Shown: in pieces, positions 2 through 43,722 of the stretch
How the letters are laid out: every line of letters begins with the position of its first letter
Position numbering within the stretch: the first letter of the stretch is position 1
Assembly: GCA_964396955.1 (NCBI GenBank)
Contig: CAYNGW010000001.1
Coordinates: 1 to 45,085, forward strand
Direction of reading: 5' to 3'
DNA: 45,085 bases
Source: an uncultured Rikenellaceae bacterium
Lineage (GTDB): Bacteria; Bacteroidota; Bacteroidia; Bacteroidales; VadinHA17
Notes under the pieces: generated by a model
Database searches by the model: none
What the model saw: the letters and a program-made list of their open reading frames with translations, nothing else
What the model was told of the DNA's origin: nothing
Program-made: the position numbers and the translations under genes

Positions 2-757
2 TTTTCAATTTCCTTCATAACATTCTTTTTTCTGAAGGACCAGCATCTGTTTTTTGAATCCATCCTGATGTGGGTTCCGGACAAATACACGGAGAATTTC
101 ACAAGAGCTCTATATTCAATTAAAAAACTGCTGACCAGGTATTTTATCGGAGTTCTTATCCAGTGTACCGGAATCATGATAATGATCGATATTGGAATGA
201 CCATCGCAGGGATTGATTTTCAGCAGGCTCTGGTCATGGGCCTGATCCTGGGAATTCTGAACGTGATCCCGTATGTAGGACCCTGGATAGGTTTATTCAT
301 AGCCATAATAATGGGCGTGGCATCTCATATTGACCAGGATTTTTCAGCTGTGGTTCTTCCGCTCGTTTATTATATGATCCTCGTTGAAGTTATTGTACAT
401 GCAATTGATAATGTTGTTAATCAGCCTCTGATCTTTTCAAACAGCGTAAGAGCTCATCCTCTTGAAATTTTTATCGTGATACTTGCAGCAGGATTTGCAG
501 CAGGTATACCGGGAATGATCCTGGGAATTCCTACTTACACAGTGCTCAGGGTCTTTGCCAGGGAATTCTTTAACAACTTCAAGGCAGTGCAGAAAATTAC
601 CTCAGGGCTTTCGCCTGAGAATATAGCCAAACATCATAGTCCTTTTGATAACATTATTAAAGATAAGAACGAGCCTGACATTGCGGAAAATCCCGAAAAT
701 CCTGAAAAATCGGAAAAACAAAGAAAACATAGCAAACCTGAAGAATCCGAATCATAA
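2..757 (+). CDS. AI-2E family transporter (PerM/UPF0118-like), 5' end cut by the window edge
   Basis: The frame is open from nt 2 with no stop before the first ATG at 68, so the gene starts upstream of the window. It is a polytopic membrane protein with an LNVIPYVGPWIG segment typical of this family. The hydrophilic tail AENPENPEKSEKQRKHSKPEESES is encoded by a 9-nt periodic array. Confidence 0.75.
   Translation, partial: FSISFITFFFLKDQHLFFESILMWVPDKYTENFTRALYSIKKLLTRYFIGVLIQCTGIMIMIDIGMTIAGIDFQQALVMGLILGILNVIPYVGPWIGLFIAIIMGVASHIDQDFSAVVLPLVYYMILVEVIVHAIDNVVNQPLIFSNSVRAHPLEIFIVILAAGFAAGIPGMILGIPTYTVLRVFAREFFNNFKAVQKITSGLSPENIAKHHSPFDNIIKDKNEPDIAENPENPEKSEKQRKHSKPEESES
683..754 (+). repeat. 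degenerate 9-nt tandem array x8 at the 3' end of the AI-2E CDS
   Basis: gcggaaaat / cccgaaaat / cctgaaaaa / tcggaaaaa / caaagaaaa / catagcaaa / cctgaagaa / tccgaatca, then TAA. In frame it encodes AEN PEN PEK SEK QRK HSK PEE SES. Confidence 0.8.
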
Positions 758-805
758 GCGGGTCATTTTAAATAAGATAGCTGGATTACCAAGATTACCT
801 GACTG

Positions 806-1045
806 ATGAGACCTCTCCTTACGTATGCAGCGAAACTATTCCGTTTCTACTACGACGGATTCAGCAATATGTCGTCATGGGGGAAGCGGGTCTGGATCAT
901 TATCATCATTAAACTCTTTATTATTTTCATTATTCTGAAAGTATTCTTTTTCCCTGATATTCTGAAAAGGGAATATGATACCGATGAGCAGAGAAGCGAA
1001 TATGTTCTTGATCAACTTACCAAATCATCTGAAACAAATGATTGA
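806..1045 (+). CDS. small membrane protein upstream of cydA (DUF4492-like)
   Basis: 79-aa ORF with one strongly hydrophobic helix (VWIIIIIKLFIIFIILKVFFF). Its stop (1043-1045) overlaps the cydA ATG at 1038 (ATGATTGA). Size and position match the small proteins that precede cydAB in Bacteroidota. The family name is from memory and was not searched. Confidence 0.6.
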   Translation: MRPLLTYAAKLFRFYYDGFSNMSSWGKRVWIIIIIKLFIIFIILKVFFFPDILKREYDTDEQRSEYVLDQLTKSSETND

Positions 1046-2603
1046 AAATGCAGATATCGCTCTTACAGACTGGTCGAGAGCCCAGTTTGCCCTGACAGCA
1101 ATTTACCACTGGATCTTTGTTCCCCTTACACTGGGATTGTCATTCATTATTGCCATTATGGAGTCCGTTTACGTGCGTACCGGAAATGAGGAATGGAAAA
1201 GACTGACCCGGTTCTGGATGACTCTTTTCGGGATAAACTTTGCAATTGGTGTCGCTACAGGGATAATCCTTGAATTTGAATTTGGCACCAACTGGTCAAA
1301 TTATTCCTGGTTCGTGGGGGATATCTTCGGAGCTCCGCTTGCAATAGAAGGGATACTGGCATTCTTCCTTGAATCTACCTTTATTGCCGTAATGTTTTTC
1401 GGATGGAACAAGGTGGGAAAGAAATTCCACCTGGCCTCCTCCTGGCTGGTAGCCATAGGGGCCAACCTGTCAGCACTATGGATCCTTGTAGCAAACGCCT
1501 GGATGCAAAATCCGGTTGGTATGGTATTTAATCCGGATACTGCCCGCAATGAAATGACGGATTTCCGGGCGGTCCTTTTCAATCCGGTCGCCGTTGATAA
1601 GTTCCTGCATACCATTTCCTCGGGATTCCTGCTCGCTTCCCTGTTTGTTATTGGTGTAAGCTCCTGGTTCCTGTTAAAAAGGAGAGAAGAATGGTTTGCA
1701 ACAAAAAGCGTGGTCATTGCTTCGGTATTCGGACTCTTATCATCACTGATGGTTGCAATCACCGGAGATACGTCAGCAAGGACCCTGTCTGCGGTTCAGC
1801 CGATGAAATTTGCCGCTTTCGAAGCCCTCTACAAGGGAAGGCAAAATGCCGGGCTGGTTGCATTCGGAATTCTGAAAGATTCTGAAAAAGGATCAGATCT
1901 GTTGAAAGCCAGGGATTTTGCATTGCGGATCGAAATACCGGGATTACTGTCAGTAATGACAGGAGGGGACAGAGAAACATTTGTGCCCGGGATCAAAGAC
2001 CTTGTCTACGGACTTTCTGACAGCACTATCCTGGCTGTAGCCGAAAAGATGAAAAGAGGCAGAGTTGCCAGAGATCTTTTAAATGATTACAAGGAAGCTA
2101 AAAAGCAAAATGATCAAATACAGGTAGAAGCAATAAAGAAAACCTTTCAGGATAAAAATTTCATTGACGACTACTTCAGTTATTTCGGGTATGCTTTTCT
2201 TGAAACACCTGAAGATGCGATTCCGAATGTGCCGGTGGCATTTTATGCCTTTCATCTTATGTTCATACTGGGATTCCTTTTTATCCTTATCTGTTGTATC
2301 GCTCTTTACCTTGGGCTGAAAGGGACTATTTCCAAAAACAGATGGTTCCTGTGGATTGCCCTGTTTTCAATCCCGCTGGCATATATTGCCAGTGAATCAG
2401 GATGGATTCTGGCTGAAATGGGACGCCAGCCCTGGATCATACAGGATCTGATGCCGGTTTCGGCGGCAGTCTCACAGCTCAGCGCAGGGGCAGTTATGAC
2501 GACCTTCATCCTTTTTGCACTGCTGTTCACCGCACTGCTTGTAGCCGAAGTTTCAATCATGATCAGGCAGATCAAAACAGGTCCAAAACACCAGGAGGGA
2601 TAA
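1038..2603 (+). CDS. cydA: cytochrome bd ubiquinol oxidase subunit I
   Basis: N-terminus MIENADIALTDWSRAQFALTAIYHWIFVPLTLG, multiple TM helices, a long hydrophilic Q-loop-like segment, and a C-terminal GWILAEMGRQPW motif. I chose the internal ATG at 1038 over the ORF-track start at 975 because 975 would overlap most of the upstream gene's 3' end. Confidence 0.93.
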   Translation: MIENADIALTDWSRAQFALTAIYHWIFVPLTLGLSFIIAIMESVYVRTGNEEWKRLTRFWMTLFGINFAIGVATGIILEFEFGTNWSNYSWFVGDIFGAPLAIEGILAFFLESTFIAVMFFGWNKVGKKFHLASSWLVAIGANLSALWILVANAWMQNPVGMVFNPDTARNEMTDFRAVLFNPVAVDKFLHTISSGFLLASLFVIGVSSWFLLKRREEWFATKSVVIASVFGLLSSLMVAITGDTSARTLSAVQPMKFAAFEALYKGRQNAGLVAFGILKDSEKGSDLLKARDFALRIEIPGLLSVMTGGDRETFVPGIKDLVYGLSDSTILAVAEKMKRGRVARDLLNDYKEAKKQNDQIQVEAIKKTFQDKNFIDDYFSYFGYAFLETPEDAIPNVPVAFYAFHLMFILGFLFILICCIALYLGLKGTISKNRWFLWIALFSIPLAYIASESGWILAEMGRQPWIIQDLMPVSAAVSQLSAGAVMTTFILFALLFTALLVAEVSIMIRQIKTGPKHQEG

Positions 2604-2605
2604 TT

Positions 2606-3736
2606 ATGACAATGATGATATCATATTTTTTTCTGCAATCATACTGGTGGGTGATAATATCCCTCCTCGGAAGCCTGCTGGTGTTTCTGATGTTTGTCCA
2701 GGGAGGTCAGTCAATGATCTTTTCACTGCCTGACACCGATGTCCGTAAAACAATGATAATAAATGCACTGGGAAGAAAATGGGAGTTCACATTTACTACC
2801 CTGGTGACATTTGGCGGTGCATTTTTTGCCGCTTTTCCGCTGTTTTATGCCACAAGCTTCGGAGGAGCATACTGGGTATGGATTGCAATTCTTTTAAGCT
2901 TTATAATCCAGGCAATAGCCTATGAATTCAGATCCAAGCCGGCAAATGTTCTTGGTAAAAAGACTTTTGATATTTTTCTTTTTCTCAACGGGGTACTCGG
3001 ACCTTTTCTCATCGGCACTGCAGTGGGGACCTTTTTTACGGGCTCTCAGTTCAGCCTGAATAGTATGAACAATGTGCAATGGGCCAACGGATGGCATGGG
3101 CTGGAGGCTTTGATCAACGGCAGGAATGTCGCACTCGGACTGGCAGTCCTGTTCCTGACAAGAGTTAATGGTTTGTTATATATAATTAATACTGTGGATG
3201 ACGGGGAACTTGTATGCCGGTCAGTTAAAAAACTGGTAATAAATTCTGTTTCCTTCCTTGTCTTTTTCCTCTTCTTTCTTGTTACACTCCTGGTGGCCAA
3301 TGGATTTGCAGCTGACAGTGAAACGAGCCAGATCGTGATGGAAAAATTCAAGTATCTCCATAATTTCATCCAGATGCCTGTGGTCCTTGTTTTATTCCTG
3401 GCAGGAGTTGTTGCCGTCATTTATGGCATCGGAATCACAATCTTCAGAAGCAGCCGGAAGAGTATATGGTTCAGCGGAGCAGGGACTGTTCTTACAGTTT
3501 TTGCGCTGTTCCTTGTTGCAGGATTCAACGGAACGTCATTTTATCCATCATCTTTCCAGTTGCCAGGCTCCCTTACAATTCATAATGCATCTTCAAGTCA
3601 TTTTACGCTGAGGACCATGATGTATGTTTCATTCATAATTCCATTTGTTATGGCATATATATGGTATGCATGGAAGGCAATCAATAAAAAGAAAATCACT
3701 GAGGAGGAAATGAAAGAAGAAGGGCATATTTATTAA
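2606..3736 (+). CDS. cydB: cytochrome bd ubiquinol oxidase subunit II
   Basis: Starts 2 nt after the cydA stop. 376-aa polytopic membrane protein with the usual CydB length and hydrophobicity pattern (SYWWVIISLLGSLLVFLMFVQGGQ). Confidence 0.9.
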   Translation: MTMMISYFFLQSYWWVIISLLGSLLVFLMFVQGGQSMIFSLPDTDVRKTMIINALGRKWEFTFTTLVTFGGAFFAAFPLFYATSFGGAYWVWIAILLSFIIQAIAYEFRSKPANVLGKKTFDIFLFLNGVLGPFLIGTAVGTFFTGSQFSLNSMNNVQWANGWHGLEALINGRNVALGLAVLFLTRVNGLLYIINTVDDGELVCRSVKKLVINSVSFLVFFLFFLVTLLVANGFAADSETSQIVMEKFKYLHNFIQMPVVLVLFLAGVVAVIYGIGITIFRSSRKSIWFSGAGTVLTVFALFLVAGFNGTSFYPSSFQLPGSLTIHNASSSHFTLRTMMYVSFIIPFVMAYIWYAWKAINKKKITEEEMKEEGHIY

Positions 3737-3737
3737 A

Positions 3738-3810
3738 GGTTACCGGCAACGGGCTTCAGGTTACAGGCCTGAGATATTTGGGACTGCAAGACATTAAGAC
3801 AATCAGACAA
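3738..3810. repeat. heptad array (GGnnnCn x5, 3738-3772) plus octad array (nAAGACAn x3, 3787-3810) between convergent cydB and pssA
   Basis: ggttacc / ggcaacg / ggcttca / ggttaca / ggcctga starts 2 nt after the cydB stop. caagacat / taagacaa / tcagacaa ends 8 nt before the pssA stop. Confidence 0.7.
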
Positions 3811-3817
3811 CACTTTC

Positions 3818-4540
3818 CTACCTGAATAACAGCGAAATAAGAGAGATAATTATATACAATGGTATTATCAGGGTAGCTCCGGCGAGGCCAAAAACTGCCA
3901 GGGCTGCAATCACCAGTATAACAAGGATATACCGTTCTTCATTTCCCCTGAGCTTCAGATGAGCGAATTTCAAAGAGAACATTGGGATGCGGGTAACCAT
4001 AAGCAGGGAAAGTACTGTTGTGAAAATTATTATTGCCACGGTGGATCCCGCAAGACCGGCGATCAAACCGGAATCTGAATAATTCAGGGCAATAACAATC
4101 CCGACAACTGCAAGTGCATTTGCCGGGGTAGGCAGACCTTTAAATGAAGTAGCCTGGGTTTCGTCAGTGTTGAATATTGCGAGCCGCAGGCCGGCACAAA
4201 CAGGCATAATCGCCGGAGAAATGAGAATCATCACCGGAAGAAACCCATCAGCATTGATTATCATCGGAGCTGATAATGAGAGAGATGTGCCCAGAAGCTG
4301 GTAGATCAATATGGCTGGTGCCACACCGAAGCTTACAACGTCAGCAAGAGAATCGAGTTCCTTGCCAATTGGTGAATATGCTTTCAGGAGCCTTGCGGAA
4401 AAACCATCAAGAAAATCGAATATCATTGCTGCCAGGATAAGCCATGAGCCTGTTGCAAGATCTCCGTTCAGGGCATAAATAATAGCAATAAAACCGGCTG
4501 CAAGATTAAGAGAAGTAATGAAATTGGGAATATGCTTCAT
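3818..4540 (-). CDS. pssA: CDP-diacylglycerol--serine O-phosphatidyltransferase (CDP-alcohol phosphatidyltransferase family)
   Basis: Motif DGFSARLLKAYSPIGKELDSLADVVSFG matches D-G-x2-A-R-x8-G-x3-D-x3-D. The start is set at MKHIPNFITSLNLAAG (ATG at 4540). The 51 codons upstream in the ORF track look non-coding. Confidence 0.85.
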   Translation of the reverse strand: MKHIPNFITSLNLAAGFIAIIYALNGDLATGSWLILAAMIFDFLDGFSARLLKAYSPIGKELDSLADVVSFGVAPAILIYQLLGTSLSLSAPMIINADGFLPVMILISPAIMPVCAGLRLAIFNTDETQATSFKGLPTPANALAVVGIVIALNYSDSGLIAGLAGSTVAIIIFTTVLSLLMVTRIPMFSLKFAHLKLRGNEERYILVILVIAALAVFGLAGATLIIPLYIIISLISLLFR

Positions 4541-4627
4541 CTTTAAACAATTGTTCACGGGGAGGGTAAAATTAAGATTAATTTCAGTAATAATGCCATT
4601 TTGGTTAAATTTGGCTCCACGAATAAT

Positions 4628-5086
4628 ATGGCAATGATTGATTTCAACAATATAAAGATCGCAGTTGATTTTGACGGGACTATCGTTGAGCATCAGTACC
4701 CGGAAATAGGCAAGGAAAAACTATTTGCTTTTCAGACTCTCAAGGAGCTTGAAAAAAGAGGGGCCAGGATTATACTCTGGACATTCAGGACCGGCAAGGA
4801 GCTTGAAGATGCTGTAAATTTTTGCAATCAGAACGGAGTTGAATTCTATGCAGTAAACAAGAATTATCCTGAAGAGGTGCAGGATGAAACTGTGAGCCGG
4901 AAAATAGATGCAGACATATATATTGATGATAAGAATATCGGAGGATTCCCCGGATGGAGCGAGGTATGGCAGATGCTTTATCCTTTTGAAATTCAGCAGA
5001 AAGAAGCAGAAAAAAGGATCACCTCAGCAAGAAAGAATATTTTCAAACGTTTATTTGCATGGATAAAGAAAACAGATGAAAAGTGA
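4628..5086 (+). CDS. HAD-superfamily-like small hydrolase (hypothetical)
   Basis: DxDxT-type motif (IAVDFDGTIV) near the N-terminus and a later DD pair (YIDDKN). First ATG in the ORF is at 4628. Function not assignable. Confidence 0.5.
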   Translation: MAMIDFNNIKIAVDFDGTIVEHQYPEIGKEKLFAFQTLKELEKRGARIILWTFRTGKELEDAVNFCNQNGVEFYAVNKNYPEEVQDETVSRKIDADIYIDDKNIGGFPGWSEVWQMLYPFEIQQKEAEKRITSARKNIFKRLFAWIKKTDEK

Positions 5087-14206: not shown

Positions 14207-14241
14207 GACCGGCACTCGGCTACCGGCGATCGGCTTAAGGT
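14207..14241. repeat. heptad array nnnCGGC x4-5, filling the whole spacer between the convergent MBOAT-fusion and hydF genes
   Basis: gaccggc / actcggc / taccggc / gatcggc / ttaaggt. It starts on the nucleotide after the stop at 14206 and ends 2 nt before the hydF stop. Confidence 0.75.
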
Positions 14242-14242: not shown

Positions 14243-15472
14243 TTACAGATAAGTTTCCCTGTTGTTATTATCTGACACAAACAGTGCAATAGCCCTTTTA
14301 TAAATACCCTGAACATAAGCAATAGCCATCCCATAATTGGTTATCGGAATACCTGCCTTCACCGCAGGCTGGAGCCTGTTATGAAGCTGCCTCCTGGTTA
14401 TCATGCATCCGCCGCACTGGATGACAAGAGCATAATCAGTAATTGGCCGCGGTAGAGTATCCAGGCCGGCGACAATATCAAATTCAATCTTCTTTCCTGT
14501 AAAGTTTGTTATCCATCTCGGTATTTTTGTTCTTCCGATATCATCGCAGGCAATATGATGAGTACATGATTCCAGGATAAGCACCCTGTCGCCGTCATTC
14601 AGTTCAGAAATTTTCGGTGTTCCTTTCAGGTAATTATCAAAATCGCCCTTGAACCTGGCGAGCATTATGCTGAAGCTTGTCAGGGGTATTTCCGGTGGGA
14701 TGGAAGCGTCAGCTTTTACAAAAACCTGAGAATCGGTGATTGCCAGGGCAGGCTTTATCCCTGTTTTTTTAAGGAATGCATCAACTTCCCTTTCCTTCAT
14801 TACTATTGCAACTGCATCATTATCAAGAATATCCCGTATAGCCTGTACCTGTGGGAGAATCAATCTACCAGCCGGAGCTTCAACATCGATGGGTGTGATC
14901 AGGATCACTATATCGCCGTAGTTGATCAGATCTCCAAGGAGCGCCGGGGTTTTATACGAATGTTCCGGAATGGTGATCCTGATAAGATTGATAAGATCTT
15001 CAAAATTACGCTTATCGACAACAGAAAACTCAAAAAGCTCTGCCCCGGTCTTCTTTTTCACCTCTTCCCTGAAACGCTTAGTGGGTTCATTTATATCTGA
15101 TTTATTGTGAATTACAATAAAGGGTATATCCTGTTCATGGAATTTAACGATCAGATTATCTTCAAACTTGCCCCAGGAATTCCCGGTAACAACAAGCAAT
15201 GCCAGATCAATTATATCCAGTGTTCTGATTGTCCTTTCAACTCTTTTATGACCAAGATCTCCGGTATCGTCGATACCACCTGTATCCACAAGAACAACAG
15301 GGCCAAATCCGGTTATTTCAAATGATTTTTTAACAGGATCCGTGGTTGTCCCCGGATGATCTGAGATTATTGCAATATCCTGACCTGCAAGGCAGTTTAT
15401 CAGGCTGCTTTTACCATAATTACGGCGGCCATAAATTCCAATATGTGGTTTTGATTCTCTGCCTTTTGACAT
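14243..15472 (-). CDS. hydF: [FeFe]-hydrogenase maturation GTPase HydF-like
   Basis: G-domain motifs (GRRNYGKSSLINCLAG, DTGGIDD, NKSD). C-terminal cluster-binding pattern ESCTHH ... QCGGCM (CxH...CxxC). The start is set at ATG 15472, because the longer ORF-track start would overlap the upstream gene. Confidence 0.8.
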   Translation of the reverse strand: MSKGRESKPHIGIYGRRNYGKSSLINCLAGQDIAIISDHPGTTTDPVKKSFEITGFGPVVLVDTGGIDDTGDLGHKRVERTIRTLDIIDLALLVVTGNSWGKFEDNLIVKFHEQDIPFIVIHNKSDINEPTKRFREEVKKKTGAELFEFSVVDKRNFEDLINLIRITIPEHSYKTPALLGDLINYGDIVILITPIDVEAPAGRLILPQVQAIRDILDNDAVAIVMKEREVDAFLKKTGIKPALAITDSQVFVKADASIPPEIPLTSFSIMLARFKGDFDNYLKGTPKISELNDGDRVLILESCTHHIACDDIGRTKIPRWITNFTGKKIEFDIVAGLDTLPRPITDYALVIQCGGCMITRRQLHNRLQPAVKAGIPITNYGMAIAYVQGIYKRAIALFVSDNNNRETYL

Positions 15473-15485
15473 AGTCTGAGTCTCG

Positions 15486-18143: not shown

Positions 18144-18220
18144 AAGAGGCGACAGGCATCAGGCAACAGGCTACAGGGAATAAACACCTGACGCCTGAAG
18201 CCCGACGCCTGAAGCCTATC
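18144..18220. repeat. two inverted heptad arrays (nnCAGGC x5, a 7-nt spacer, GCCTGnn x5) forming a segmented hairpin
   Basis: aagaggc / gacaggc / atcaggc / aacaggc / tacaggg, spacer aataaac, then acctgac / gcctgaa / gcccgac / gcctgaa / gcctatc. Exactly 11 heptads. The right arm overlaps the stop and last codon of the ABC permease. Confidence 0.85.
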
Positions 18221-20538: not shown

Positions 20539-20561
20539 TGAAAACTATGTTTTTAAAATGT

Positions 20562-20590
20562 ACTCACCCCCATTCTTTTTGGGGGTGAGT
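20562..20590 (-). terminator. perfect 10-bp GC-rich hairpin downstream of dnaJ (putative terminator)
   Basis: ACTCACCCCC / GGGGGTGAGT arms with a 9-nt loop, 12 nt after the dnaJ stop. On the transcribed strand it is followed by ACATTTTAAAAAC, a weak U tract. Confidence 0.5.
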
Positions 20591-20602
20591 GCATGAATTC
20601 TC

Positions 20603-22472: not shown

Positions 22473-22642
22473 AATTGACAAATTGACAGGAGAAAAGGCT
22501 TTACGGTGTTACGGCATTACGGCAGAAATTCAAATCTTTGGTTTTGCCTTAAAGCCCTGACACCCTAACGCCTTTACGCCCTAAAGCCCTAACGCCTTTA
22601 CGCCCTAAAGCCCTAACGCCTTTACGCCCTAAAGCCCTAAAG
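22473..22642. repeat. chain of octad arrays: AATTGACA x2, nnTTACGG x3, CCYTWAMG x12 (including three perfect 24-bp units)
   Basis: aattgaca x2 (22473-22488). ctttacgg / tgttacgg / cattacgg (22499-22522). 12 octads at 22547-22642, with ccctaacgcctttacgccctaaag repeated perfectly at 22563, 22587 and 22611. The last octad contains the murA stop codon. Confidence 0.9.
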
Positions 22643-25430: not shown

Positions 25431-25478
25431 GGTGCAACGGAGCAATGGTACAACGGTACAAAGGCGCAAAGGTTCTAT
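25431..25478. repeat. octad array GGnnCAAn x5-6
   Basis: ggtgcaac / ggagcaat / ggtacaac / ggtacaaa / ggcgcaaa / ggttctat. It ends 18 nt downstream of the CapA-like stop and lies upstream of the NicO-like gene. Confidence 0.8.
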
Positions 25479-35140: not shown

Positions 35141-35941
35141 ATGAACATGAAGGAATCTCTTATAGTATGTATTGTCCTGATATCGTTTTCAGGAATAATT
35201 AAGAGACAGAACAAAATTCACAATACCCTCAACATTCAGGAAGAAGACAATCCTGTTACATTTTGGTGCAGTTGACTGGTTGTCAGACATATACATAAAA
35301 AGCACAAAAGTCGGATCTCACCAGGGAGGTTATGATCCATCAACCAAATGGGGCGACCTCAGGGCTTCAATGGGTCACCCTGAACCCTTTAACCTTAAAT
35401 ATATCGGTGTTGGAAACGAGCAGTGGGAAGAACTCAGGAAGCTTAGTCCGGCGTTAATCGATGAGCATTATTATATGCTCCCCTGCTGGCTCATGTTGAG
35501 GCATGGCAATGGCGCCCGGACCTTATATGGTTTGATAACCTCCGGGTGGCGGGCACACCGAATTACTATGTTCAGAAATTATTTTCTACTCACAGGGGAA
35601 CGCAGGTAATTCCTGCCTTGAAAGAAGAGAAGCCTCTTACCGGATCTGACAGTCTTTATGCCAGCGCCACAATTGACAAAACTAACAAAAAAGCCTGTAT
35701 CAAGCTGGTTAATACCTCAATATCAGTAAAACCTGTAAGGCTGAACCTTGACGGGCTGTCATTCCTGAAAAACGGAGAAATTGAAACGCTTAAAGCGGAT
35801 AATTTATTCGACTTTAATTCAATTGCAGATCCGAAGCTGATATATCCTTCATCCCGACAGGTTTCTGTGTCTTCAAAAAAGGTTAGTGCCAACATTGAAC
35901 CAAGATCGGTAAATGTGATAGTTCTGAATTATAAAAAATAG
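35141..35941 (+). pseudogene. decayed GH51-like alpha-L-arabinofuranosidase remnant
   Basis: Three pieces in different frames. (1) A signal-peptide ORF at 35141-35275. (2) WGDLRASMGHPEPFNLKYIGVGNEQW ... IDEHYY. (3) WQWRPDLIWFDNLRVAGTPNYYVQKLFSTHRGTQV through to a normal C-terminus. About 800 nt remain, against roughly 2 kb expected, so there are frameshifts plus large internal deletions. Confidence 0.75.
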
Positions 35942-36677: not shown

Positions 36678-36679
36678 AT

Positions 36680-37067
36680 TTAATTCAGCCAGTTCTCGGC
36701 CATCTGTGGCCATGTTTTAGCGGCAAGATTTACAGGTCTTAAACCATATCCGTGTCCGCCGGATGGCATGACAGGCTGTCTGCGGCATCCATCGGAACAT
36801 AAGTCCTTTTGCTGAAAAGGGTACTGGTACTGGCGCTGAGACTACCTCCGGCGGAAAAGCCCATTATGCCAACTTTTTCAGGATCGATATTCCATTTAGG
36901 AGCTTTTTGTCTGACCACTCTCAAAGCCCGTTGTGCATCCTGAAGCGCGCCTTCTTTTTTTTCAGCTCTCCAGGTGCTTTCCCGGGCCAGAGATAGATGA
37001 GCTCTTTCTTTTGCGACATGCAGCTGATGGAAAGAAGCAGCAGAACGATAATAAGTGTTTGTTTCAT
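36680..37067 (-). pseudogene. decayed alpha/beta-hydrolase (carbohydrate esterase-like) remnant
   Basis: Minus-strand pieces in three frames. (1) A lipoprotein signal MKQTLIIVLLLLSISC followed by LIYLWPGKAPGE. (2) LQDAQRALRVVRQKAPKWNIDPEKVGIMGFSAGG (GxSxG nucleophile elbow). (3) The C-terminus GGHGYGLRPVNLAAKTWPQMAENWLN-stop. About 390 nt remain, against roughly 900 nt expected. Confidence 0.65.
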
Positions 37068-37090
37068 TGTATTCTGATTTGTTTCGATGT

Positions 37091-37113
37091 CTCACCCCCT
37101 CGTCTGGGGTGAG
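37091..37113. repeat. GC-rich hairpin CTCACCCC-N7-GGGGTGAG, same arm sequence as the hairpin at 20562-20590
   Basis: Perfect 8-bp arms with a 7-nt loop. It lies between the stop of the small lipoprotein gene (37124) and the esterase remnant. Confidence 0.55.
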
Positions 37114-37123
37114 GTTTATATAA

Positions 37124-37480
37124 TTATTCAACAATTTCTGCATTATCGAATTTCTGCGACTGGAAATTGACCCTTGAATGCTGCACTCTTCTCACGGTCC
37201 TACCACCGAAAAAGCCCCAGCCACCGCTTCCCAGAAGAAATCCGAGCGCGTACAAACCGCCATTATTATTCTGTGCATACATGGTTATTTCATCATTGAA
37301 TAGCATGCCGACAAAATCAAAAGGAGCAATGAACCCGTGCCACAGACCTCCGAAAAAACCATATGTATGCCCGGTCAGGCACTGATCAACTATTTCATTA
37401 TGAGCACATCCGGAAAGAAAAATGAGAATCATAAAAATAGAAAAGAACAGAAAATATTTCTGATTATAAAAGGTTTTCAT
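37124..37480 (-). CDS. small hypothetical lipoprotein, Gly-rich
   Basis: Signal peptide with lipobox (ILIFLSGCAH) and glycine-zipper-like stretches (GFFGGLWHGF, GFLLGSGGWGFFGG). No family recognised. Confidence 0.5.
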   Translation of the reverse strand: MKTFYNQKYFLFFSIFMILIFLSGCAHNEIVDQCLTGHTYGFFGGLWHGFIAPFDFVGMLFNDEITMYAQNNNGGLYALGFLLGSGGWGFFGGRTVRRVQHSRVNFQSQKFDNAEIVE

Positions 37481-38065: not shown

Positions 38066-38089
38066 CAATCATGCAATCATGCGATCTAT
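38066..38089. repeat. octad array CAATCATG x2 plus one decayed unit
   Basis: caatcatg / caatcatg / cgatctat. The third unit contains the stop codon of the 38086-38508 gene. Confidence 0.6.
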
Positions 38090-38508
38090 TTTTCAAATCT
38101 CCTGGAAGTCGATTTTATATATCTAATATTCCTGAAACGCATGGCCGACCAGTTTTCATCAATTGAGACCATCCTTATCCCGTGGAAGCCCAGATCATTC
38201 AGGGCACTCCACCCGCAGTCACGTTCAGGCCCTGAGGAATACAATTTAGAGTTCTTTTTGGGATAACAGAACCATAATATGCCATCGGCTGTTAGATTAT
38301 GAAGAGCCATTGGTGCAAAGCGACTGACTTCAGAGACGGACCTGACAAATATGATTATGAACTCATAGGGACAACGCTGATCTATCTCATTATCAGTGAT
38401 TACGCCTATAAGCTCCCTGGAAATTGCCCGGAAAAAGAATTCTTCAGCATTGATAACCGCAATTCTTTTGTAATCCTTGTAATTAAGTTTCCTCAGGAGC
38501 TCTTCCAT
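38086..38508 (-). CDS. conserved hypothetical cytoplasmic protein
   Basis: 140 aa. The pattern WFCYPKKNSKLYSS...RDCGW...GFHGIRMVSIDENWSAMRFR recurs in a small uncharacterised family (possibly DUF3052-like, from memory only). Confidence 0.5.
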   Translation of the reverse strand: MEELLRKLNYKDYKRIAVINAEEFFFRAISRELIGVITDNEIDQRCPYEFIIIFVRSVSEVSRFAPMALHNLTADGILWFCYPKKNSKLYSSGPERDCGWSALNDLGFHGIRMVSIDENWSAMRFRNIRYIKSTSRRFEK

Positions 38509-38577: not shown

Positions 38578-38668
38578 TTCTCGGAAAATGGGGTGCCTCA
38601 AAATTACGGGCTGAGATCAAACCCTTTGTACCTGATCCGGATAATGCCGGCGTAGGAAAAGAAAGTAT
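38578..38668 (+). promoter_or_regulatory. TPP (THI-box) riboswitch
   Basis: Conserved cores GGGGTGCC ... GCTGAGA ... ACCCTTTGTACCTGATCCGGATAATGCCGGCGTAGGAA are in the canonical order and spacing. The genes downstream are thiamine-uptake genes. Confidence 0.88.
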
Positions 38669-38729
38669 AGCCACGTGACCTTTTAAATAAGCAAACCTCA
38701 TTTTCCTGAGACATTAGTTTAATTTGAAA

Positions 38730-41111
38730 ATGATGAAAAGGTTTACGTTATTAATATTCGTATTCGTCGTCACTTTTTCTGATGTGTCAGCGTTTCAGAA
38801 CCAGGGCTCGGTTATCCGTGGCAGAGTCACTGACGTTTCAGGAAATCCTTTTGCAGGGGCGACGGTAGCAATTGAAAATACATCAATTGGAGTTCAAACT
38901 GATTATGATGGCAATTACTCAATTACCGGACTAAGAGACGGAAGTTATACCATCAGGTTTTCCTATATAGGTTATGAGACCATGGTAAAAGAGGTTACGG
39001 TAAAAGAGGATATTGTTGTAAATATAATACTTTCAGAAAAGACTTATATGACAGAAGAAGTTCTGGTAAGCGCCACAAGAGCCGGGGAGCATACGCCATT
39101 GACCTACACCACAGTAAACAAAGAAGACATAAAAAAGAATAATATTGTTCAGGATATTCCATTTATAATGAATTACACTCCTTCCATGGTTGTTTCTTCG
39201 GATGCAGGGACAGGCGTGGGATATACAAGTTTAAACATACGTGGTAGCGATACAAGGAGGATCAATGTGACTATAGATGGTATACCTGTAAATGATGCTG
39301 AGTCGCATGGAGTCTGGTGGGTAGATCTGCCGGATATTGCATCATCTGCCGATAATATTCAGATACAGCGCGGTGTTGGCACTTCAACCAACGGAGCCGG
39401 TGCATTCGGCGCTACAATAAATATACAAACATCAGCATTGAACCGTGAACCTTATGCTGAAATCAACTCGTCATTCGGGTCCTTCAACACATTAAAAAAT
39501 ACTGCAAACTTCGGAACCGGATTAATAGTTAATAAATTTGCTGTTGATGCCCGTTTATCCAAAATATCGTCTGATGGATATATCGACCGGGCTTTCAGCG
39601 ATTTAAAGTCGTTTTATCTATCCGGGACATATTACAGTAATAAAAGCATTTTGAAACTTCTTGTTTTTTCAGGCTCAGAACGTACTTACCAGGCATGGCT
39701 GGGTGTTCCTAAAGATTCTCTTATAAAAAACAGGACTTATAATCCATACAGCTATGAAAATGAAACAGATAATTACTGGCAGGATAATTACCAGCTACAT
39801 TATTCACAAAGGATAAATGATTTCTTACATATTGATGCAGCCCTTCATTATACAAGAGGAAAAGGATATTATGAAAATTTTAAACCGGATTCAAAACTCA
39901 TTTCGTATGGTCTTGATGATAAAATAATTAATAATGATACTGTTACCAGAACAGATATTATAGTCCAGAAATGGCTCGATAATGATTTTTATGGGTTTAC
40001 TTACTCTATTAATTATGAAAAGAACAGGTTCAATCTGTTAATTGGTGGAAGCTGGAATAATTATGACGGGGACCATTTTGGAGATATAATCTGGGCCAGG
40101 ATCGTAACTTTTAACGGCGAGAAGTATCGCTGGTATAACGGGACAGGAGATAAAAAGGATTTGAATTCTTACATGAAAATTAATTATTCACTGGCTGCAG
40201 GTTTAAATCTTTATACAGATTTACAATTGCGTCATATTAATTATGTAATAAAGGGAATTGACGACAATTTAAAGGATATTACTCAGGATCATTTGTATAA
40301 CTTCTTTAATCCTAAGGCCGGGATATTGTACAGTCTCAGTAAACAACAAAAAGTCTATGCTTCGTTTGGGATATCCCAGAGAGAACCTGACAGATCGAAT
40401 TTTACTGATGCCGATCCGGGTAAAACACCAAAACCGGAAAAACTGTATGACCTTGAAACAGGTTATGAATTAAGCTCATCAAAAGTCATGTTAAAAGCGA
40501 ATCTCTACTATATGCATTATAAAGACCAGTTGATCTCCACCGGCGAAATTAACAATGTCGGAGATCCTATATTGACTAATGTATCAAGAAGTTACAGAAT
40601 GGGGATTGAACTTGAATCCAGTTTAAAGATAATACAGAATCTGAACTGGTATGGTAATGTAACTTTCAGCAGAAATATTATTCCGCTTTTTGTTGATTAT
40701 ACAGATAACTGGGATACCTGGAGCCAGGAAAGTGATAATCTTAAAAATAAAACGATATCTTTTTCGCCATCAGTAATTGCATGCTCCATATTTGATTATG
40801 AACCTTTCAATGAGGTCCATCTGAATCTGACTACCAAATATGTCGGGAAACAGTATATTGATAATACCCAGGATGCTGAAAGGATGCTAAATGGATATCT
40901 GGTACAGAACCTTTCATTATCCTATACATTAACGACCAAAACAGTTAAAAAGCTTGTTTTTCAGTTAATGGTGAATAATCTCTTTAATCACAAATATGAA
41001 TCATATGCATGGGTTTATAAATACATAGAGGGTGGTACTCAAAAGATAATGGATGGATATTTCCCACAGGCCGGTATAAATATTATGATAAAAGCAGGTT
41101 TGACTTTCTGA
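38730..41111 (+). CDS. TonB-dependent outer-membrane receptor with N-terminal carboxypeptidase-regulatory-like domain
   Basis: Signal peptide. CarbopepD_reg-like IRGRVTDVSGNPFAGATVAIENTSIGVQTDYDGNYSI. Plug domain (RGSDTRRINVTIDGIPVND). Beta-barrel ending in the aromatic terminus ...AGLTF. The start is set at ATG 38730. Confidence 0.9.
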   Translation: MMKRFTLLIFVFVVTFSDVSAFQNQGSVIRGRVTDVSGNPFAGATVAIENTSIGVQTDYDGNYSITGLRDGSYTIRFSYIGYETMVKEVTVKEDIVVNIILSEKTYMTEEVLVSATRAGEHTPLTYTTVNKEDIKKNNIVQDIPFIMNYTPSMVVSSDAGTGVGYTSLNIRGSDTRRINVTIDGIPVNDAESHGVWWVDLPDIASSADNIQIQRGVGTSTNGAGAFGATINIQTSALNREPYAEINSSFGSFNTLKNTANFGTGLIVNKFAVDARLSKISSDGYIDRAFSDLKSFYLSGTYYSNKSILKLLVFSGSERTYQAWLGVPKDSLIKNRTYNPYSYENETDNYWQDNYQLHYSQRINDFLHIDAALHYTRGKGYYENFKPDSKLISYGLDDKIINNDTVTRTDIIVQKWLDNDFYGFTYSINYEKNRFNLLIGGSWNNYDGDHFGDIIWARIVTFNGEKYRWYNGTGDKKDLNSYMKINYSLAAGLNLYTDLQLRHINYVIKGIDDNLKDITQDHLYNFFNPKAGILYSLSKQQKVYASFGISQREPDRSNFTDADPGKTPKPEKLYDLETGYELSSSKVMLKANLYYMHYKDQLISTGEINNVGDPILTNVSRSYRMGIELESSLKIIQNLNWYGNVTFSRNIIPLFVDYTDNWDTWSQESDNLKNKTISFSPSVIACSIFDYEPFNEVHLNLTTKYVGKQYIDNTQDAERMLNGYLVQNLSLSYTLTTKTVKKLVFQLMVNNLFNHKYESYAWVYKYIEGGTQKIMDGYFPQAGINIMIKAGLTF

Positions 41112-41128
41112 TTCTAAGCATCCGGACT

Positions 41129-41887
41129 ATGTGGTTTTCTAACTGGCTATCAAATAACTATATCGAAGTCTTCGGGGCTGTTACCGGTATTATTTATGTC
41201 ATACTGGAAATAAGGCAGAACATATGGTTATGGCCGGTAGGAATAGCGACTTCGGCAGTTTATATATGGGTGTTCTTTACGAGTAAATTTTATGCTGACA
41301 TGAGTCTGCAGGGGTACTACCTGGTTATAAGTGTACTGGGGTGGTACTGGTGGATAAAGGGCGGAGGGCGGATGGCGGAGGGCGAAGGGCAAGAGGCGCA
41401 GAGCTCAGGGCGCAGGGCTCAGGGCGCAGGGCAGAAGGCAAAGGGCGAAGAGCAGGGGGCGCAGAACGCAGAGCTAATGGCGCAGGGCGAAGAACAACTA
41501 GATGCTGATACAGAGCTCCCCTCCTCGGAGGAGTTGGGGGTGGGTATTGAAAGACCTGGAAAACTTAAAGTAACAAGAATAAGTCTAAAAACTACGCTTA
41601 TTCTCTCGGCTGTATTTTTGGCTCTTCTTGCAGTTATGTATCTGGTGCTTGACAGACTCACGGATTCACCGGTGCCTTTCTGGGATTCGTTTATTACAAC
41701 TCTGTCAATTATAGCCACATGGATGCTTGCCAGGAAGATTTACGAACACTGGTATCTGTGGATCGTTGTTAATGCTGCTTCAGTACTGTTGTTTTATACG
41801 AGAGGGCTTTACCCGACTGTCGTGCTTTACATTATTTATTGTGCCATGTCGTTTGTGGGCCTTAATGAATGGAAACGTACACTCTGA
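41129..41887 (+). CDS. pnuC: PnuC-family transporter (thiamine-type PnuT by context) carrying an in-frame ~60-aa low-complexity insertion
   Basis: Seven TM helices in a 3+1+3 layout. WYWW motif after TM3. Located in a TPP-riboswitch operon next to TPK. The TM3-TM4 loop contains GRMAEGEGQEAQSSGRRAQGAGQKAKGEEQGAQNAELMAQGEEQLDADTELPSSEELGVG. Confidence 0.85.
   Translation: MWFSNWLSNNYIEVFGAVTGIIYVILEIRQNIWLWPVGIATSAVYIWVFFTSKFYADMSLQGYYLVISVLGWYWWIKGGGRMAEGEGQEAQSSGRRAQGAGQKAKGEEQGAQNAELMAQGEEQLDADTELPSSEELGVGIERPGKLKVTRISLKTTLILSAVFLALLAVMYLVLDRLTDSPVPFWDSFITTLSIIATWMLARKIYEHWYLWIVVNAASVLLFYTRGLYPTVVLYIIYCAMSFVGLNEWKRTL
41355..41494 (+). repeat. heptad array x20 (consensus CGCAGGG) inside the PnuC-family CDS
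   Basis: taaaggg cggaggg cggatgg cggaggg cgaaggg caagagg cgcagag ctcaggg cgcaggg ctcaggg cgcaggg cagaagg caaaggg cgaagag caggggg cgcagaa cgcagag ctaatgg cgcaggg cgaagaa. The register is unbroken for 140 nt. It is followed by the palindrome CCCCTCCTCGGAGGAGTTGGGGG (41518-41540). Confidence 0.9.
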
Positions 41888-42011
41888 CAGTTCATGTAAT
41901 GTAATATCTCTGCCGACAGCAAAAGCGATTTTCTTAAGTTCAGACATCAGTCGGTCAAACTCATCAATAGATTTAAAGAAATAATGTAACTTTATTAATC
42001 ACATACTTATT

Positions 42012-42632
42012 ATGTCGTTAAAAACTGTGATTCTGGCAAACGGACAATTTCCGGAGAATGAGATCCCGAGGAATTTTCTTATGAATGCTGAAGTGATTGT
42101 ATGCTGCGATGGAGCAGCTGTGACACTTGTTCAGTATGGACTTGAGCCTTCAGCAATTGTGGGGGATTGTGATTCGATTGATGATGAGATTATTAACAGA
42201 TATGCAGACCGGATATACAAAGACGATGAACAGGAAACTAACGATCTGACCAAAGCAGTAAAATGGTGCTCAGAAAAGGGGTATAAAGATATTGTTATTC
42301 TCGGGGCAACAGGCAAACGGGATGATCATACCCTGGGAAACATATCGCTGCTTGCTGAATATGCACAATTCGTGAACATAAAAATGGTTACTGATACCGG
42401 GATCTTTTATCCTGCTCTTGAAAGCAGCAGATTTGAAACTTCACCTGGTCAGCAGATTTCAATTTTCTCTATAAATCCTGATACCGAAATAATCTCATCG
42501 GGTTTGAAGTACCCACTTAATAAGAGAAAATTAAAAAACTGGTGGGAAGCAACACTGAATGAGGCTGTAGGTAATTCATTTGAATTGAAATTTGACAGGG
42601 GAAAAGTAATTGTATTTATGGAATTTAAGTAA
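42012..42632 (+). CDS. thiamine diphosphokinase (TPK)
   Basis: IVGDCDSIDD, DQETNDLTKAV and ILGATGKRDDHTLGNI motifs. C-terminal thiamine-binding beta domain. 206 aa. Confidence 0.88.
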   Translation: MSLKTVILANGQFPENEIPRNFLMNAEVIVCCDGAAVTLVQYGLEPSAIVGDCDSIDDEIINRYADRIYKDDEQETNDLTKAVKWCSEKGYKDIVILGATGKRDDHTLGNISLLAEYAQFVNIKMVTDTGIFYPALESSRFETSPGQQISIFSINPDTEIISSGLKYPLNKRKLKNWWEATLNEAVGNSFELKFDRGKVIVFMEFK

Positions 42633-42635
42633 AAA

Positions 42636-42733
42636 GTCCTGCAGGTCTTGCCAGTCCTGCCAGTCTTGCATGTCATTTAACCCGAGAGGACCTGCACGAC
42701 CTGCATGACCTGCATGACTTGCATGACAATCTC
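42636..42733. repeat. two nonamer arrays (GTCYTGCMn x4-5 and GACYTGCAY x4-5) filling the spacer between the convergent TPK and LuxR-type genes
   Basis: gtcctgcag / gtcttgcca / gtcctgcca / gtcttgcat / gtcatttaa, then cccgagag, then gacctgcac / gacctgcat / gacctgcat / gacttgcat / gacaatctc. It starts 4 nt after the TPK stop and runs into the LuxR-type stop codon. Confidence 0.85.
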
Positions 42734-43664
42734 ACTGCTTGGTTTCTTCTTTTACCAGGGTTATCAGCTGCACCCTGCTCCTGACATTAGTTTTAATATA
42801 TATCCTGTGAGTATGATCCTTCACAGTCTGCAGGCTGATAAATAGCTTGTCTGCTATCTCTTTATTGCTGAGCCCATTGCAGATCTCCCGCACGATATCC
42901 GTTTCACGTGGCGATACATCAAATTTTCTGCAGAATTCCTCAAATGACAGTTCCTTCCCCGGTTCCGTGGTAAATGCAGACATCAGCGTACCGTAAGTGA
43001 AATAGACCGGGAGAAATGCATTGCCGGTAAAGAATGTCAGGATAAAGAGCAGGGCTATATAAACAGATATTGTATAGAAAAAAAGAGGAATGCATTGTAA
43101 AAGCATTACAGTTAAGATAGCTGTAGCAATTATCCTCCTGTCATACGCGTGAATGAATGACTTTCCCTTCTTTGGAAATATTATCAGGATTGAAGCAAAA
43201 GAGGAATAGATAAAATTCATGCCGATAAAATAGTAACGTATCAGGTCTTCAGGTTCAATTGATTTTTCTTCGGCGACATAATAGCCTAAAGTGATTATTA
43301 TCGCGAAATTGACAAGAAGGAACCAAAGAAAGTGCCAGTTATTATACTTTCTTCCTGAAATTTCTCCTGAGAACCTGATGAGCATAAGCCAGGCAAAAAC
43401 CAGAAAGGGAAATCCAAGAAGAAGGGAGATATTGGTAAAGCGTTCAATCAGGTTTGAATCTATATAGGGAGAGAGAAAAGCTTTAATGATCACCTGACCC
43501 CAGATTCCATAAAATCCGAATGTAAAGATGAAAACCAGGAAATACAGCAGAGATGAGAAAATTTCACTCCTGTACCTGTTCCTCAGCCGTGATGCCAGGA
43601 CCACGCTTCCAGCGGCCAGAGCTACCGATAAGAAAAAAACCAGCCAAACCAGATATTTGAGCAT
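42732..43664 (-). CDS. membrane-embedded LuxR/GerE-type transcription regulator (about 7 TM helices plus a C-terminal HTH)
   Basis: The N-terminal ~230 aa are almost entirely hydrophobic helices. The C-terminus is SPRETDIVREICNGLSNKEIADKLFISLQTVKDHTHRIYIKTNVRSRVQL, a LuxR-type HTH. Confidence 0.75.
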   Translation of the reverse strand: MLKYLVWLVFFLSVALAAGSVVLASRLRNRYRSEIFSSLLYFLVFIFTFGFYGIWGQVIIKAFLSPYIDSNLIERFTNISLLLGFPFLVFAWLMLIRFSGEISGRKYNNWHFLWFLLVNFAIIITLGYYVAEEKSIEPEDLIRYYFIGMNFIYSSFASILIIFPKKGKSFIHAYDRRIIATAILTVMLLQCIPLFFYTISVYIALLFILTFFTGNAFLPVYFTYGTLMSAFTTEPGKELSFEEFCRKFDVSPRETDIVREICNGLSNKEIADKLFISLQTVKDHTHRIYIKTNVRSRVQLITLVKEETKQ

Positions 43665-43687
43665 AATAATATAAAGGTATTCAGATT

Positions 43688-43722
43688 ATTTCGGATTTCG
43701 GATTGTCGATTGCGGATTTTTT
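43688..43722. repeat. heptad array ATTnnGG x5 in the promoter region of the LuxR-type gene
   Basis: atttcgg / atttcgg / attgtcg / attgcgg / atttttt, 24-58 nt upstream of the ATG at 43664 on the minus strand. Confidence 0.7.

Follow-up and report, generated by a model that had tools for sequence, protein, structure and literature searches.

Tandem arrays of 7- to 10-nt units in the intergenic DNA of Bacteroidota as a version of known slippage-prone repeats

The 45,085-bp contig CAYNGW010000001.1 of an uncultured Rikenellaceae bacterium, analysed here as a whole and called the window, carries short tandem arrays with units of 7, 8 or 9 nt, several of which abut or overlap stop codons. We have found that most of the arrays listed are real and far above chance, that arrays of 7-10 nt are a Bacteroidota-wide trait, and that they are the Bacteroidota version of slippage-prone repeats known from cyanobacteria and Xanthomonas. 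They are probably long simple-sequence repeats of the heptamer-to-decamer class, produced at the DNA level by replication slippage and accumulating where constraint is lowest; a selected role as terminators is not supported. What looked like a local oddity is accordingly a property of non-coding DNA across the phylum Bacteroidota.

Tandem arrays and array hairpins in the window

Arrays were called with Tandem Repeats Finder (TRF), reporting from a score of 30, and the level expected by chance was taken from 100 dinucleotide-preserving shuffles of the window. At scores of at least 35 there are 12 arrays of period 7-9, against a shuffle mean of 0.43 (maximum 2), and at scores of at least 40 there are 7, against 0.02. 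Comparable periodic runs in shuffled DNA, an outcome that the original prediction had named as telling against it, are rare; arrays scoring 30-34 are individually within the chance range. Folding was assessed by z-scores from RNA folding against 200 shuffles per locus. Eleven loci had been put forward; TRF calls arrays at nearly all of them, with the reservations that 3738 is uncalled, 683 is coding and 3788 is weak. The arrays are as follows, with the strand where one is assigned.

686-737 (locus 683-737), + strand: in-frame 9-nt repeats called by TRF, GAAAATCCC x2.6 followed by AAAACAAAG x2.6, within the C-terminal tail encoded by the AI-2E transporter open reading frame (ORF) 68-757 (Pfam AI-2E_transport)
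3739-3773: weak GGnnnCn x5 repetition of period 7 immediately past the stop of cydB (3734-3736), below TRF score 30
3788-3810: 8-nt array AAGACAAT x2.9, TRF score 32, 8 nt from the stop of a convergent CDP-alcohol phosphatidyltransferase gene (3818-4693, - strand)
14208-14235: 7-nt array nnnCGGC x4, TRF score 42, called as 14 x2
18147-18217, - strand: inverted 7-nt pair, nnCAGGC x4.4 at 18147-18177 and GCCTGnn x4.4 at 18187-18217 (as read on the + strand), folding with a free energy of -48.5 kcal/mol (z -7.5)
22492-22644, - strand: inverted 8-nt pair, GGCnTTAC x3.5 at 22497-22524 and nTAAnGCC x12.4 at 22546-22644, TRF scores 100 and 158
25431-25461, - strand: 8-nt array GGnnCAAn on the + strand, CCGTTGYR in gene sense, TRF x3.9, about 5 units, TRF score 34
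38066-38086, - strand: 8-nt array CAATCATG x2.6 called by TRF, abutting the stop of a 140-aa ORF (38086-38508), upstream of ogt
41358-41489, + strand: 7-nt array AGGGCGC x18.9 called by TRF, 3% indels, in frame in the pnuC/pnuT ORF 41129-41887
42626-42738: inverted 9-nt pair, RGTCYTGCM x3.9 at 42635-42669 and GACYTGCAY x4.3 at 42689-42727, with a hairpin at 42636-42727
43688-43719: 7-nt array ATTTCGG x4.6, 14% indels, TRF score 41, 24 nt upstream of the start of the LuxR-type gene, in a divergent promoter region

At three of these loci the arrays form inverted pairs that fold as long hairpins, a point absent from the original prediction, and at none of them does any of the 200 shuffles fold as well. 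The stems are 25-35 bp long and are interrupted in every unit by a mismatch or a small internal loop. The hairpin at 18147-18217 overlaps the stop of the ABC-2 permease gene (18216-18218) and lies upstream of the gene for a sigma54 response regulator. That of the murA-grpE spacer, at ~22492-22577, is part of a fold of -55.9 kcal/mol over 22492-22644 (z -4.0; whole spacer z -3.9). The longer of its two arrays, 22546-22644, overlaps the murA stop (22637-22639) and contains a 24-nt super-repeat x3.6 whose 96% identity points to a recent multi-unit duplication. The third hairpin, 42636-42727, lies between the convergent thiamine pyrophosphokinase (TPK) and LuxR-type genes (-41.2 kcal/mol, z -4.8 on the + strand; -46.2 kcal/mol, z -4.4 on the - strand), and the segment around it, 42626-42738, provides the last codons and the stops of both. 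The single arrays at 3739, 14208, 25431, 38066 and 43688 fold no better than shuffles (z -0.6 at 14208, +1.0 and no hairpin at 25431, +1.4 at 38066, -1.1 and -0.6 for the 43688 region).

Arrays make up three of the window's four strongest 3' hairpins. The only strong one not made of tandem units follows dnaJ (~20558-20594, - strand) and has an 11-bp GC-rich stem, CACTCACCCCC/GGGGGTGAGTA, followed by AUUUUAAAA (spacer fold z -4.7). From this GC hairpin and its AUUUU, the organism has a conventional terminator-like hairpin available.

Two of the loci differ from the rest. The 683-737 repeat encodes ENPENPEKSEKQ (translated context AENPENPEKSEKQRKHSK) and is an ordinary coding low-complexity repeat, of a different class from the other arrays. 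At 3738-3773 we counted 16 of 28 lag-7 matches by hand; the locus has GGGCTTCAGG in common with the 18187 array, with an 11-nt match to 18194-18204, and no significant fold, and its standing as an array is doubtful. The array at 14208-14235 fills the 36-nt spacer that separates MBOAT (stop 14206) from the convergent hydF gene (stop 14243), and that at 25431 lies 35 nt past the PGA_cap stop (25496) and ~53 nt before the DsbD_2 start. Five convergent gene pairs had been counted; we find six, the additional DedA/abhydrolase-fragment pair (spacer 36678-36738) having an ordinary small hairpin without an array.

The units are less uniform in design than first described. The period is not strictly kept everywhere, given the indels at 41358 and 43688. 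The claim that every locus has a different core is only partly right: CAGG(G)C heptamers occur at 18147/18187, 3739 and 41358 and GGnnYWAM octamers at 22497/22546 and 25431, and CAGG(G)C and CCGTTGYR arrays recur across lineages. These are loose core families, the array loci of the window sharing no more than 11-14 nt with one another. As to a constant core with freely varying positions, variable columns do lie adjacent to one another (z -2.85), and multi-allelic columns show no excess concentration over chance, so that the idea is weakly supported.

The array at 41358-41489 lies inside a gene. It is read through all three frames to give a heptapeptide-like loop, GRRAQGAGQKAKGEEQGAQ, of the type GxG[RH]RAQ, which splits the Pfam NMN_transporter match between profile positions 71 and 72. 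PnuC homologues of 205-281 aa have GxG[RH]RAQ repeats of varying length in the same loop, and DNA arrays are present in pnuC of three relatives (L081, L082 and L083; such handles denote individual related loci). A terminator element would not be tolerated at this position inside pnuC, whereas a DNA repeat that keeps the frame would.

Spread, placement and turnover of the arrays

The arrays were also counted in a pooled set of the window and 80 loci from different Bacteroidota species (1.37 Mb, of which 103 kb is intergenic), at a TRF score of at least 35 and at least 2.9 copies. The relatives were reached via PnuC homologues and collection scans. The intergenic DNA of this set contains 44 arrays where 2.7 are expected by chance, and the periods fall in the order 7 > 8 > 9 ~ 10.

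Period 7: 19 observed, 0.45 expected in 103 kb of intergenic DNA
Period 8: 11 observed, 0.40 expected
Period 9: 6 observed, 0.57 expected
Period 10: 5 observed, 0.42 expected

Essentially no intergenic arrays of period 2-6 or 11-13 were found in the same 103 kb. Coding DNA has 0.40 arrays per 10 kb, mostly of period 6, 9 or 12, that is, multiples of 3, against 7.4 in convergent spacers, 4.2 in divergent spacers and, in co-directional spacers, 5.3 in the 3' half and 2.6 in the 5' half; the density in intergenic DNA is 10-18 times that in coding DNA. At least one array of period 7-9 is present in 32 of the 80 loci, the window being ~3.5 times denser than their average. Arrays are carried by isolate genomes too (Brumimicrobium glaciale, Pedobacter and Bacteroides sp. 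GD17), and three 50-kb stretches of E. coli K-12 (150 kb) contain none of period 7-10.

Non-random placement at stop codons, as originally claimed, stands for most of the loci, the exceptions being 43688, in a divergent promoter region, and 41358, inside an ORF. The effect is modest. Of 47 intergenic arrays in the pooled set, 21 lie no more than 20 nt from a stop codon, against 7.1 expected for random placement over all spacers and 15.0 when each array is placed at random in its own spacer (z 2.8); start codons show no enrichment (11 against 13.7). The adjacency is partly forced, because an array can extend into the end of an ORF only if its units hold a stop codon. In 11 of 14 stop-proximal arrays the sense strand has more G than C, compared with 3 of 11 distal ones. 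We considered this bias as a sign of function and rejected it, since TAG, TGA or TAA is bound to occur in any array overlapping a stop.

The comparison of orthologous spacers that the original prediction had proposed shows that copy number changes at the same site while the period is kept and the units drift. The array beside ogt has 2.6 units of CAATCATG in the window and 4.1 of AATCGTGC in L081 (3705-3737); L083 has a different hairpin element in place of the 8-nt array. The most extensive series is the murA-grpE spacer, compared in ~52 metagenomic lineages that have murA-grpE synteny in common, with GrpE identities of 56-76%. Period 8 is the top autocorrelation period in 36 of the 52, about 33 fold with z of -2 or below, and the units are lineage-specific (GGCGCAAA/TTGTGCCG, GGGCTTTA/GCCTTAAC and GAGACTAA/GTCTCTTA, for example). 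The two arms pair at -41.0 kcal/mol with their own partner and at -29.0 kcal/mol with the arms of other lineages; in some lineages (L114, L118 and L148) the two period-8 arrays are not complementary. Elsewhere, period 7 with a CAGG(G)C core recurs in the permease-regulator spacer of L001, L089, L102, L103, L126, L159 and L160, and the 8-nt unit CCGTTGYR is conserved in the PGA_cap-DsbD_2 spacer of L084, L085, L096 and L098. The MBOAT/hydF spacer has ACCGGCT x3 in L084 and GTTGCRG x4 in L109, and a related AATCCGC x2.4 is found in L081 (9522-9538) at the place of the 43688 array. Inverted array pairs with loops of 10-40 nt occur in unrelated Bacteroidota (L014, L028, L038 and L058).

Gain and length change of whole arrays can also be followed. 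TPK and the LuxR-type gene have a 14-nt overlap in both L081 and L082; aligned with these relatives, the window has a clean insertion of ~113 nt (42626-42738), which consists of the two inverted 9-nt arrays and is absent from both relatives. Between near-identical strains (99.6-99.96% identity), (GTTGCTT)n differs as 15.7 against 12.7 copies and (AACCAGC)n as 3.4 against 5.4, the latter lying just before the pnuC start in L167-L169 with a 2-unit difference. These length changes by whole units, which are a mark of long simple-sequence repeats, were seen in relatives rather than in the window strain. The TonB-receptor/pnuC spacer has a different heptamer array in each of L081, L082 and L083 and none in the window.

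The perfect (GTTGCTT)n array of 12.7-15.7 copies begins 3 nt past the TonB-receptor stop (L167 5636-5745, L168 2531-2619, L169 1103-1191) and is followed by a 58-aa ORF of the 23S_rRNA_IVP family for which the window has no counterpart. The array is the clearest variable-number tandem repeat (VNTR) in the data, and folding it gave nothing significant.

A second, dispersed hairpin element was noticed in the intergenic spacers of the relatives, with the form CCCCTCC-loop-GGAGGGG-N-GGGGTGGG and a loop insert that is sometimes long (L083 5938-6005, L089 5994-6019, L107 3731-3756, L115 6796-6822, and in L090, L094 and L078). In the ogt spacer of L083 it is this element that takes the place of the 8-nt array. 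It has no Rfam match. In the window a copy (41516-41544) is read in frame as part of the PnuC loop, giving the conserved peptide 'LPSxEGLGVG'.

Slippage and the competing explanations

Replication slippage at gene ends, one of several roles and origins first suggested, is the option best supported by these data. The reading rests on period conservation with unit drift, polymorphism in unit steps, coding arrays in multiples of 3, the in-frame pnuC array, strand symmetry and non-complementary arms; the whole-unit strain differences, the copy-number change at orthologous sites and the peak of the spectrum at 7-8 nt all fall in with it. Heptamers are reported to be the most abundant long simple-sequence repeat in most prokaryotes and polymerase slippage has been proposed for them (Mrazek 2007, as summarised in PMC4679880 and PMC4692102), and mismatch repair is poor for loops of more than 3 nt (PMC4060949). 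We propose that arrays would be born, grow and shrink by whole units and be homogenised, giving concerted evolution, at sites of low constraint such as those just past stops, convergent spacers and the permissive loop of one membrane protein. Loops of at least 7 nt may evade mismatch repair and still be short enough to slip, which would give the peak at 7-8 nt, and a GC-rich core could nucleate misaligned pairing, leaving uniform cores and variable flanking positions. Intramolecular template switching (quasipalindrome correction) that copies an array to the opposite strand would produce the inverted pairs, with arms that stay complementary without selection. Expansion would stop at constrained sequence, an ORF on one side and a promoter on the other, and so leave arrays against stop codons. 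The hairpins may incidentally pause transcription or protect 3' ends; the data do not require this.

Several observations weigh against slippage as the whole explanation. The same spacers still carry arrays at GrpE identities as low as 56%, and in roughly half of the lineages the two arms co-evolve; selection would predict both of these as well. Stop adjacency exceeds random expectation even within an array's own spacer, variable columns cluster, and cores such as CAGGC and CCGTTG recur at unrelated loci, hinting at a sequence-specific constraint. Furthermore, the preference for 7-8 nt rather than 5-6 nt and the template switching between arms are steps that we infer, and our view of this genome is limited to 45 kb. 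Room for selection remains in the long persistence, the co-variation of the arms, the stop adjacency and the recurrence of GC-rich cores.

The strongest alternative, which we regard as possible but tentative, is that the arrays, and especially the inverted pairs, are selected cis-elements acting as U-tract-independent terminators, insulators or 3'-end stabilisers. They might shield the sigma54-type promoter of grpE from murA read-through, or separate convergent genes, with slippage as a quick means of lengthening a stem. The three inverted pairs do fold far beyond their shuffles, make up most of the strongest 3' hairpins and begin at or a few nt from stop codons; a period-8 hairpin with lineage-specific complementary arms follows murA in most of the 52 lineages; and inverted pairs recur in unrelated Bacteroidota. 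Canonical terminator-like sites are scarce above shuffles (22 against 17.7 in the first 20 kb and 30 against 17.7 in the next 20 kb), few of them at gene ends, and cyanobacterial STRR hairpins have been proposed as transcript stabilisers or terminators (PMC2670836).

A terminator-like 3' RNA structure, also among the roles first suggested, fails two tests. The 8 nt past 31 orthologous murA hairpins contain 2.65 T against 2.44 expected and only 2 of the 31 have five or more, even though a T5 run does follow the 3' arm in L126 and L103; in the window the murA hairpin is followed by UUUUCUC, and the tail on the LuxR side is UUUUUAC. Selection at the RNA level should keep G-U wobble pairs preferentially on the transcript, and there is no sign of this, the sense strand being the more stable in 27 cases and the antisense in 21 (p = 0.52). 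A scan for consensus terminators recognised none of the array hairpins as canonical terminators, except for an internal sub-stem at 18190-18209. Most arrays are, moreover, single and without a fold, several lineages have arms that are not complementary, the same type of array lies in a coding region and in a divergent promoter region, and the relatives have no TPK/LuxR spacer at all.

It is improbable that the arrays are multimeric platforms for a candidate single-stranded nucleic-acid-binding protein, such as one with a cold-shock domain or an RNA-recognition motif, which would cover ~7-8 nt per monomer and read the GC-rich core loosely. The period of each locus is kept while its sequence drifts, the cores CAGG(G)C and CCGTTG/GGCnCAA are found at different loci and in different lineages, variable positions cluster, and PMC4679880 cites CspB as binding direct heptamer repeats with one protein per heptamer. 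Against this, the cores are too diverse among loci and species for a single specificity, the periods span 7 to 10, and the window has no candidate gene. Taken more broadly, as the proposal that arrays or array hairpins are selected Bacteroidota-wide cis-elements of either kind (U-tract-independent terminators or insulators, or platforms with one unit per monomer), with the period of each locus held over family-level divergence, the sequence turning over by concerted compensatory change and slippage tuning stem length or site number, the selective account seems to us rather unlikely. If the hairpins were functional, they would be an unusual, length-tunable design of terminator.

Insertion of a mobile or dispersed element of the REP/REPIN or MITE type at gene ends is very improbable. 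The clean ~113-nt TPK/LuxR insertion of two inverted halves, and placement past stops and between convergent genes as in REP elements, would fit. The short matches between array loci would not, nor would the lack of separate terminal inverted repeats and of a clear target-site duplication at this insertion, the lack of a RAYT or transposase gene among the Pfam matches of the window's 39 ORFs, or the variation of orthologous arrays by whole units rather than by presence or absence of a fixed element.

Chance periodicity or short-read assembly artefact is largely refuted and can practically be set aside: the window is a single 45-kb contig with metagenome-assembled genomes (MAGs) as closest relatives, its lowest-scoring loci (3738, 3788 and 683) are within or near the chance range and misassembly could have affected copy number in its two longest arrays (99 and 132 nt), but the excess over shuffles is large, independent assemblies and the isolates named above have similar arrays at orthologous positions, and most arrays are shorter than a read.

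Four further candidates were dropped: G-quadruplexes, as G3 runs occur in some units only; integron attC sites, the genes being housekeeping genes in conserved synteny; Rho rut sites, the stop-adjacent arrays being G-rich rather than C-rich; and enhancer-binding-protein sites for the sigma54 promoter, as the nearby activator has no match to a DNA-binding domain and arrays lie at loci without promoters.

Gene neighbourhood and known repeat systems

In the window 39 ORFs were mapped and named by Pfam. Exact-sequence look-ups of GrpE, TPK and MurA matched no second contig; the nearest relatives are MAGs of Bacteroidales and other Bacteroidota, with a top MurA identity of 84% (L001), in which the order DUF4290-murA-grpE-dnaJ-ABC-ABC-sigma54 regulator is kept.

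A sigma54-type -24/-12 motif, TGGCAAGCAATTTGC (22449-22463, - strand), lies 34 nt upstream of grpE and is preceded by a doubled box, CTGTCAATTTGTCAAT (22473-22488); dozens of related lineages have kept both ahead of grpE, which suggests possible sigma54-dependent control of grpE-dnaJ. A second match, TGGCACGCTGTTTGC (44792-44806, + strand), is near the window end, and the two matches in the window are not above chance by themselves. The sigma54-dependent response regulator (16938-18113, - strand, 391 aa) has receiver, AAA+ sigma54-interaction and lid domains and no match to a C-terminal helix-turn-helix, and may activate from solution.

No array has a match in Rfam, the sole Rfam match of the window being a thiamine pyrophosphate (TPP) riboswitch at 38584-38668 (+ strand; 57.2 bits against a gathering score of 54.3), also present in L083. 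It lies upstream of ORFs for a TonB-dependent receptor (38724-41111), the PnuC-family transporter (41129-41887) and TPK (42012-42632), and the group looks like a thiamine uptake/salvage operon. Given the riboswitch, the receptor and TPK, the 'pnuC' of the window is probably a PnuT-like thiamine transporter.

Two pairs of overlapping short ORFs look like broken genes: alpha-L-arabinofuranosidase fragments (ASD1_dom and Alpha-L-AF_C) at 35280-35941 (+ strand), and an alpha/beta-hydrolase (BD-FAE) fragment followed by an ORF without a Pfam match at 36739-37480 (- strand); L083 has an intact 284-aa BD-FAE gene nearby. The longest ORF of the HydF-like GTPase (14243-15607, - strand) overlaps the upstream aspartase/fumarase-family gene (15486-16931, - strand) by 122 nt, so its true start is probably further downstream. 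This HydF homologue is found without any hydrogenase gene in the window.

The original prediction named the STRR of heterocystous cyanobacteria as the only comparable system known to it, and was aware of no described equivalent in Bacteroidota. Neither view holds. Heptamer simple-sequence repeats, hairpins included, have been described in cyanobacteria, Xanthomonas, Beggiatoaceae and a few Bacteroidetes, which places the arrays in a known class. The accounts concerned cover LSSR heptamers (Mrazek 2007), the (GGGANTN)n arrays of Xanthomonas (PMC4692102) and heptamers in Beggiatoaceae (PMC4679880), the last of which already notes TAACTGA and other heptamer repeats in five Bacteroidetes.

STRR are a few defined heptamers reiterated many times per cyanobacterial genome. 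In the 45-kb window no such small set of units is found at many loci, the loci matching one another over at most 11-14 nt; period 7 occurs at 14208, 18147/18187, 41358 and 43688, period 8 at 22497/22546, 25431, 38066 and 3788, and period 9 at 42635/42689. The units are locus-specific and the host belongs to Bacteroidales, its closest relatives being Bacteroidales and other Bacteroidota at up to 84% MurA identity rather than heterocystous or filamentous cyanobacteria. The two systems are alike in having intergenic tandem units of ~7 nt, often hairpin-forming, whose orthologous positions (hupS-hupL, nif) are kept with varying sequence (PMC2670836); for these hairpin-forming heptamers at conserved intergenic positions a role in transcript stability or termination was proposed (PMC2670836, citing Jackman and Mulligan 1995).

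A close match is to the LSSR5-11 of Mrazek, Guo and Shah (2007), which, as summarised in PMC4679880 and PMC4692102, are tandem units of 5-11 bp beyond chance, mainly intergenic, with heptamers commonest and slippage proposed. Our arrays are likewise longer than composition predicts, mostly non-coding and richest in heptamers, with multiples of 3 within genes. As far as these summaries go, the surveys did not single out Bacteroidetes (in PMC4060949 the phylum is only a table column), nor do they present orthologous conservation of the period or stop adjacency, and the arrays of the window are degenerate rather than perfect.

In Xanthomonas, heterogeneous (GGGANTN)n arrays of variable length, inverted pairs included, lie at orthologous positions (Rehm et al. 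2015, PMC4692102). Like ours, they combine conserved and variable positions, are mostly intergenic and include some inverted pairs able to form stem-loops; they differ in having one dominant G-rich unit per genome with G-quadruplex potential, where here there are many units and such potential is not general. The TAACTGA repeats of Beggiatoaceae, Cyanobacteria and five Bacteroidetes (MacGregor 2015, PMC4679880) are intergenic, can overlap stops, run in frame inside ORFs when in a stop-free orientation and are missing from the corresponding spacer of close relatives, all of which recalls the present arrays. They are, however, a single specific unit mostly just upstream of starts, in contrast to the diverse units and stop-side bias found here.

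Other elements are more distant. Intrinsic terminators share a strong hairpin just past the stop codon with three window loci only; the array stems are longer and mismatched at each unit, with no consistent U-tract. REP and REPIN elements (BIME) are imperfect palindromes past stops or between convergent genes, some as inverted doublets. They form one family in many copies mobilised by RAYT, whereas the arrays have no shared sequence and the 45 kb no RAYT gene. CRISPR arrays have 23-50-nt repeats with unique spacers, in contrast to units of 7-9 nt placed head-to-tail without spacers. Phase-variable contingency loci are not indicated, as most arrays lie past stop codons and the pnuC array is in frame across homologues.

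The arrays bear on practice as potential strain-typing markers (VNTRs) and as a source of misassembly in MAGs. They also create new C-terminal codons, stops and protein loops, the ends of TPK, LuxR and murA having been rewritten and PnuC carrying a 44-residue loop. The murA-grpE series, in which 50-odd lineages combine one period with different units and often with co-varying arms, offers natural material for setting concerted evolution by slippage and template switching against selection on RNA structure. With respect to the known systems, what is new is the quantified, Bacteroidota-wide spectrum of 7-10 nt, the locus-specific conservation of period with compensatory turnover of units, the bias towards stop codons, and a documented case of an array hairpin arising between two genes that formerly overlapped.

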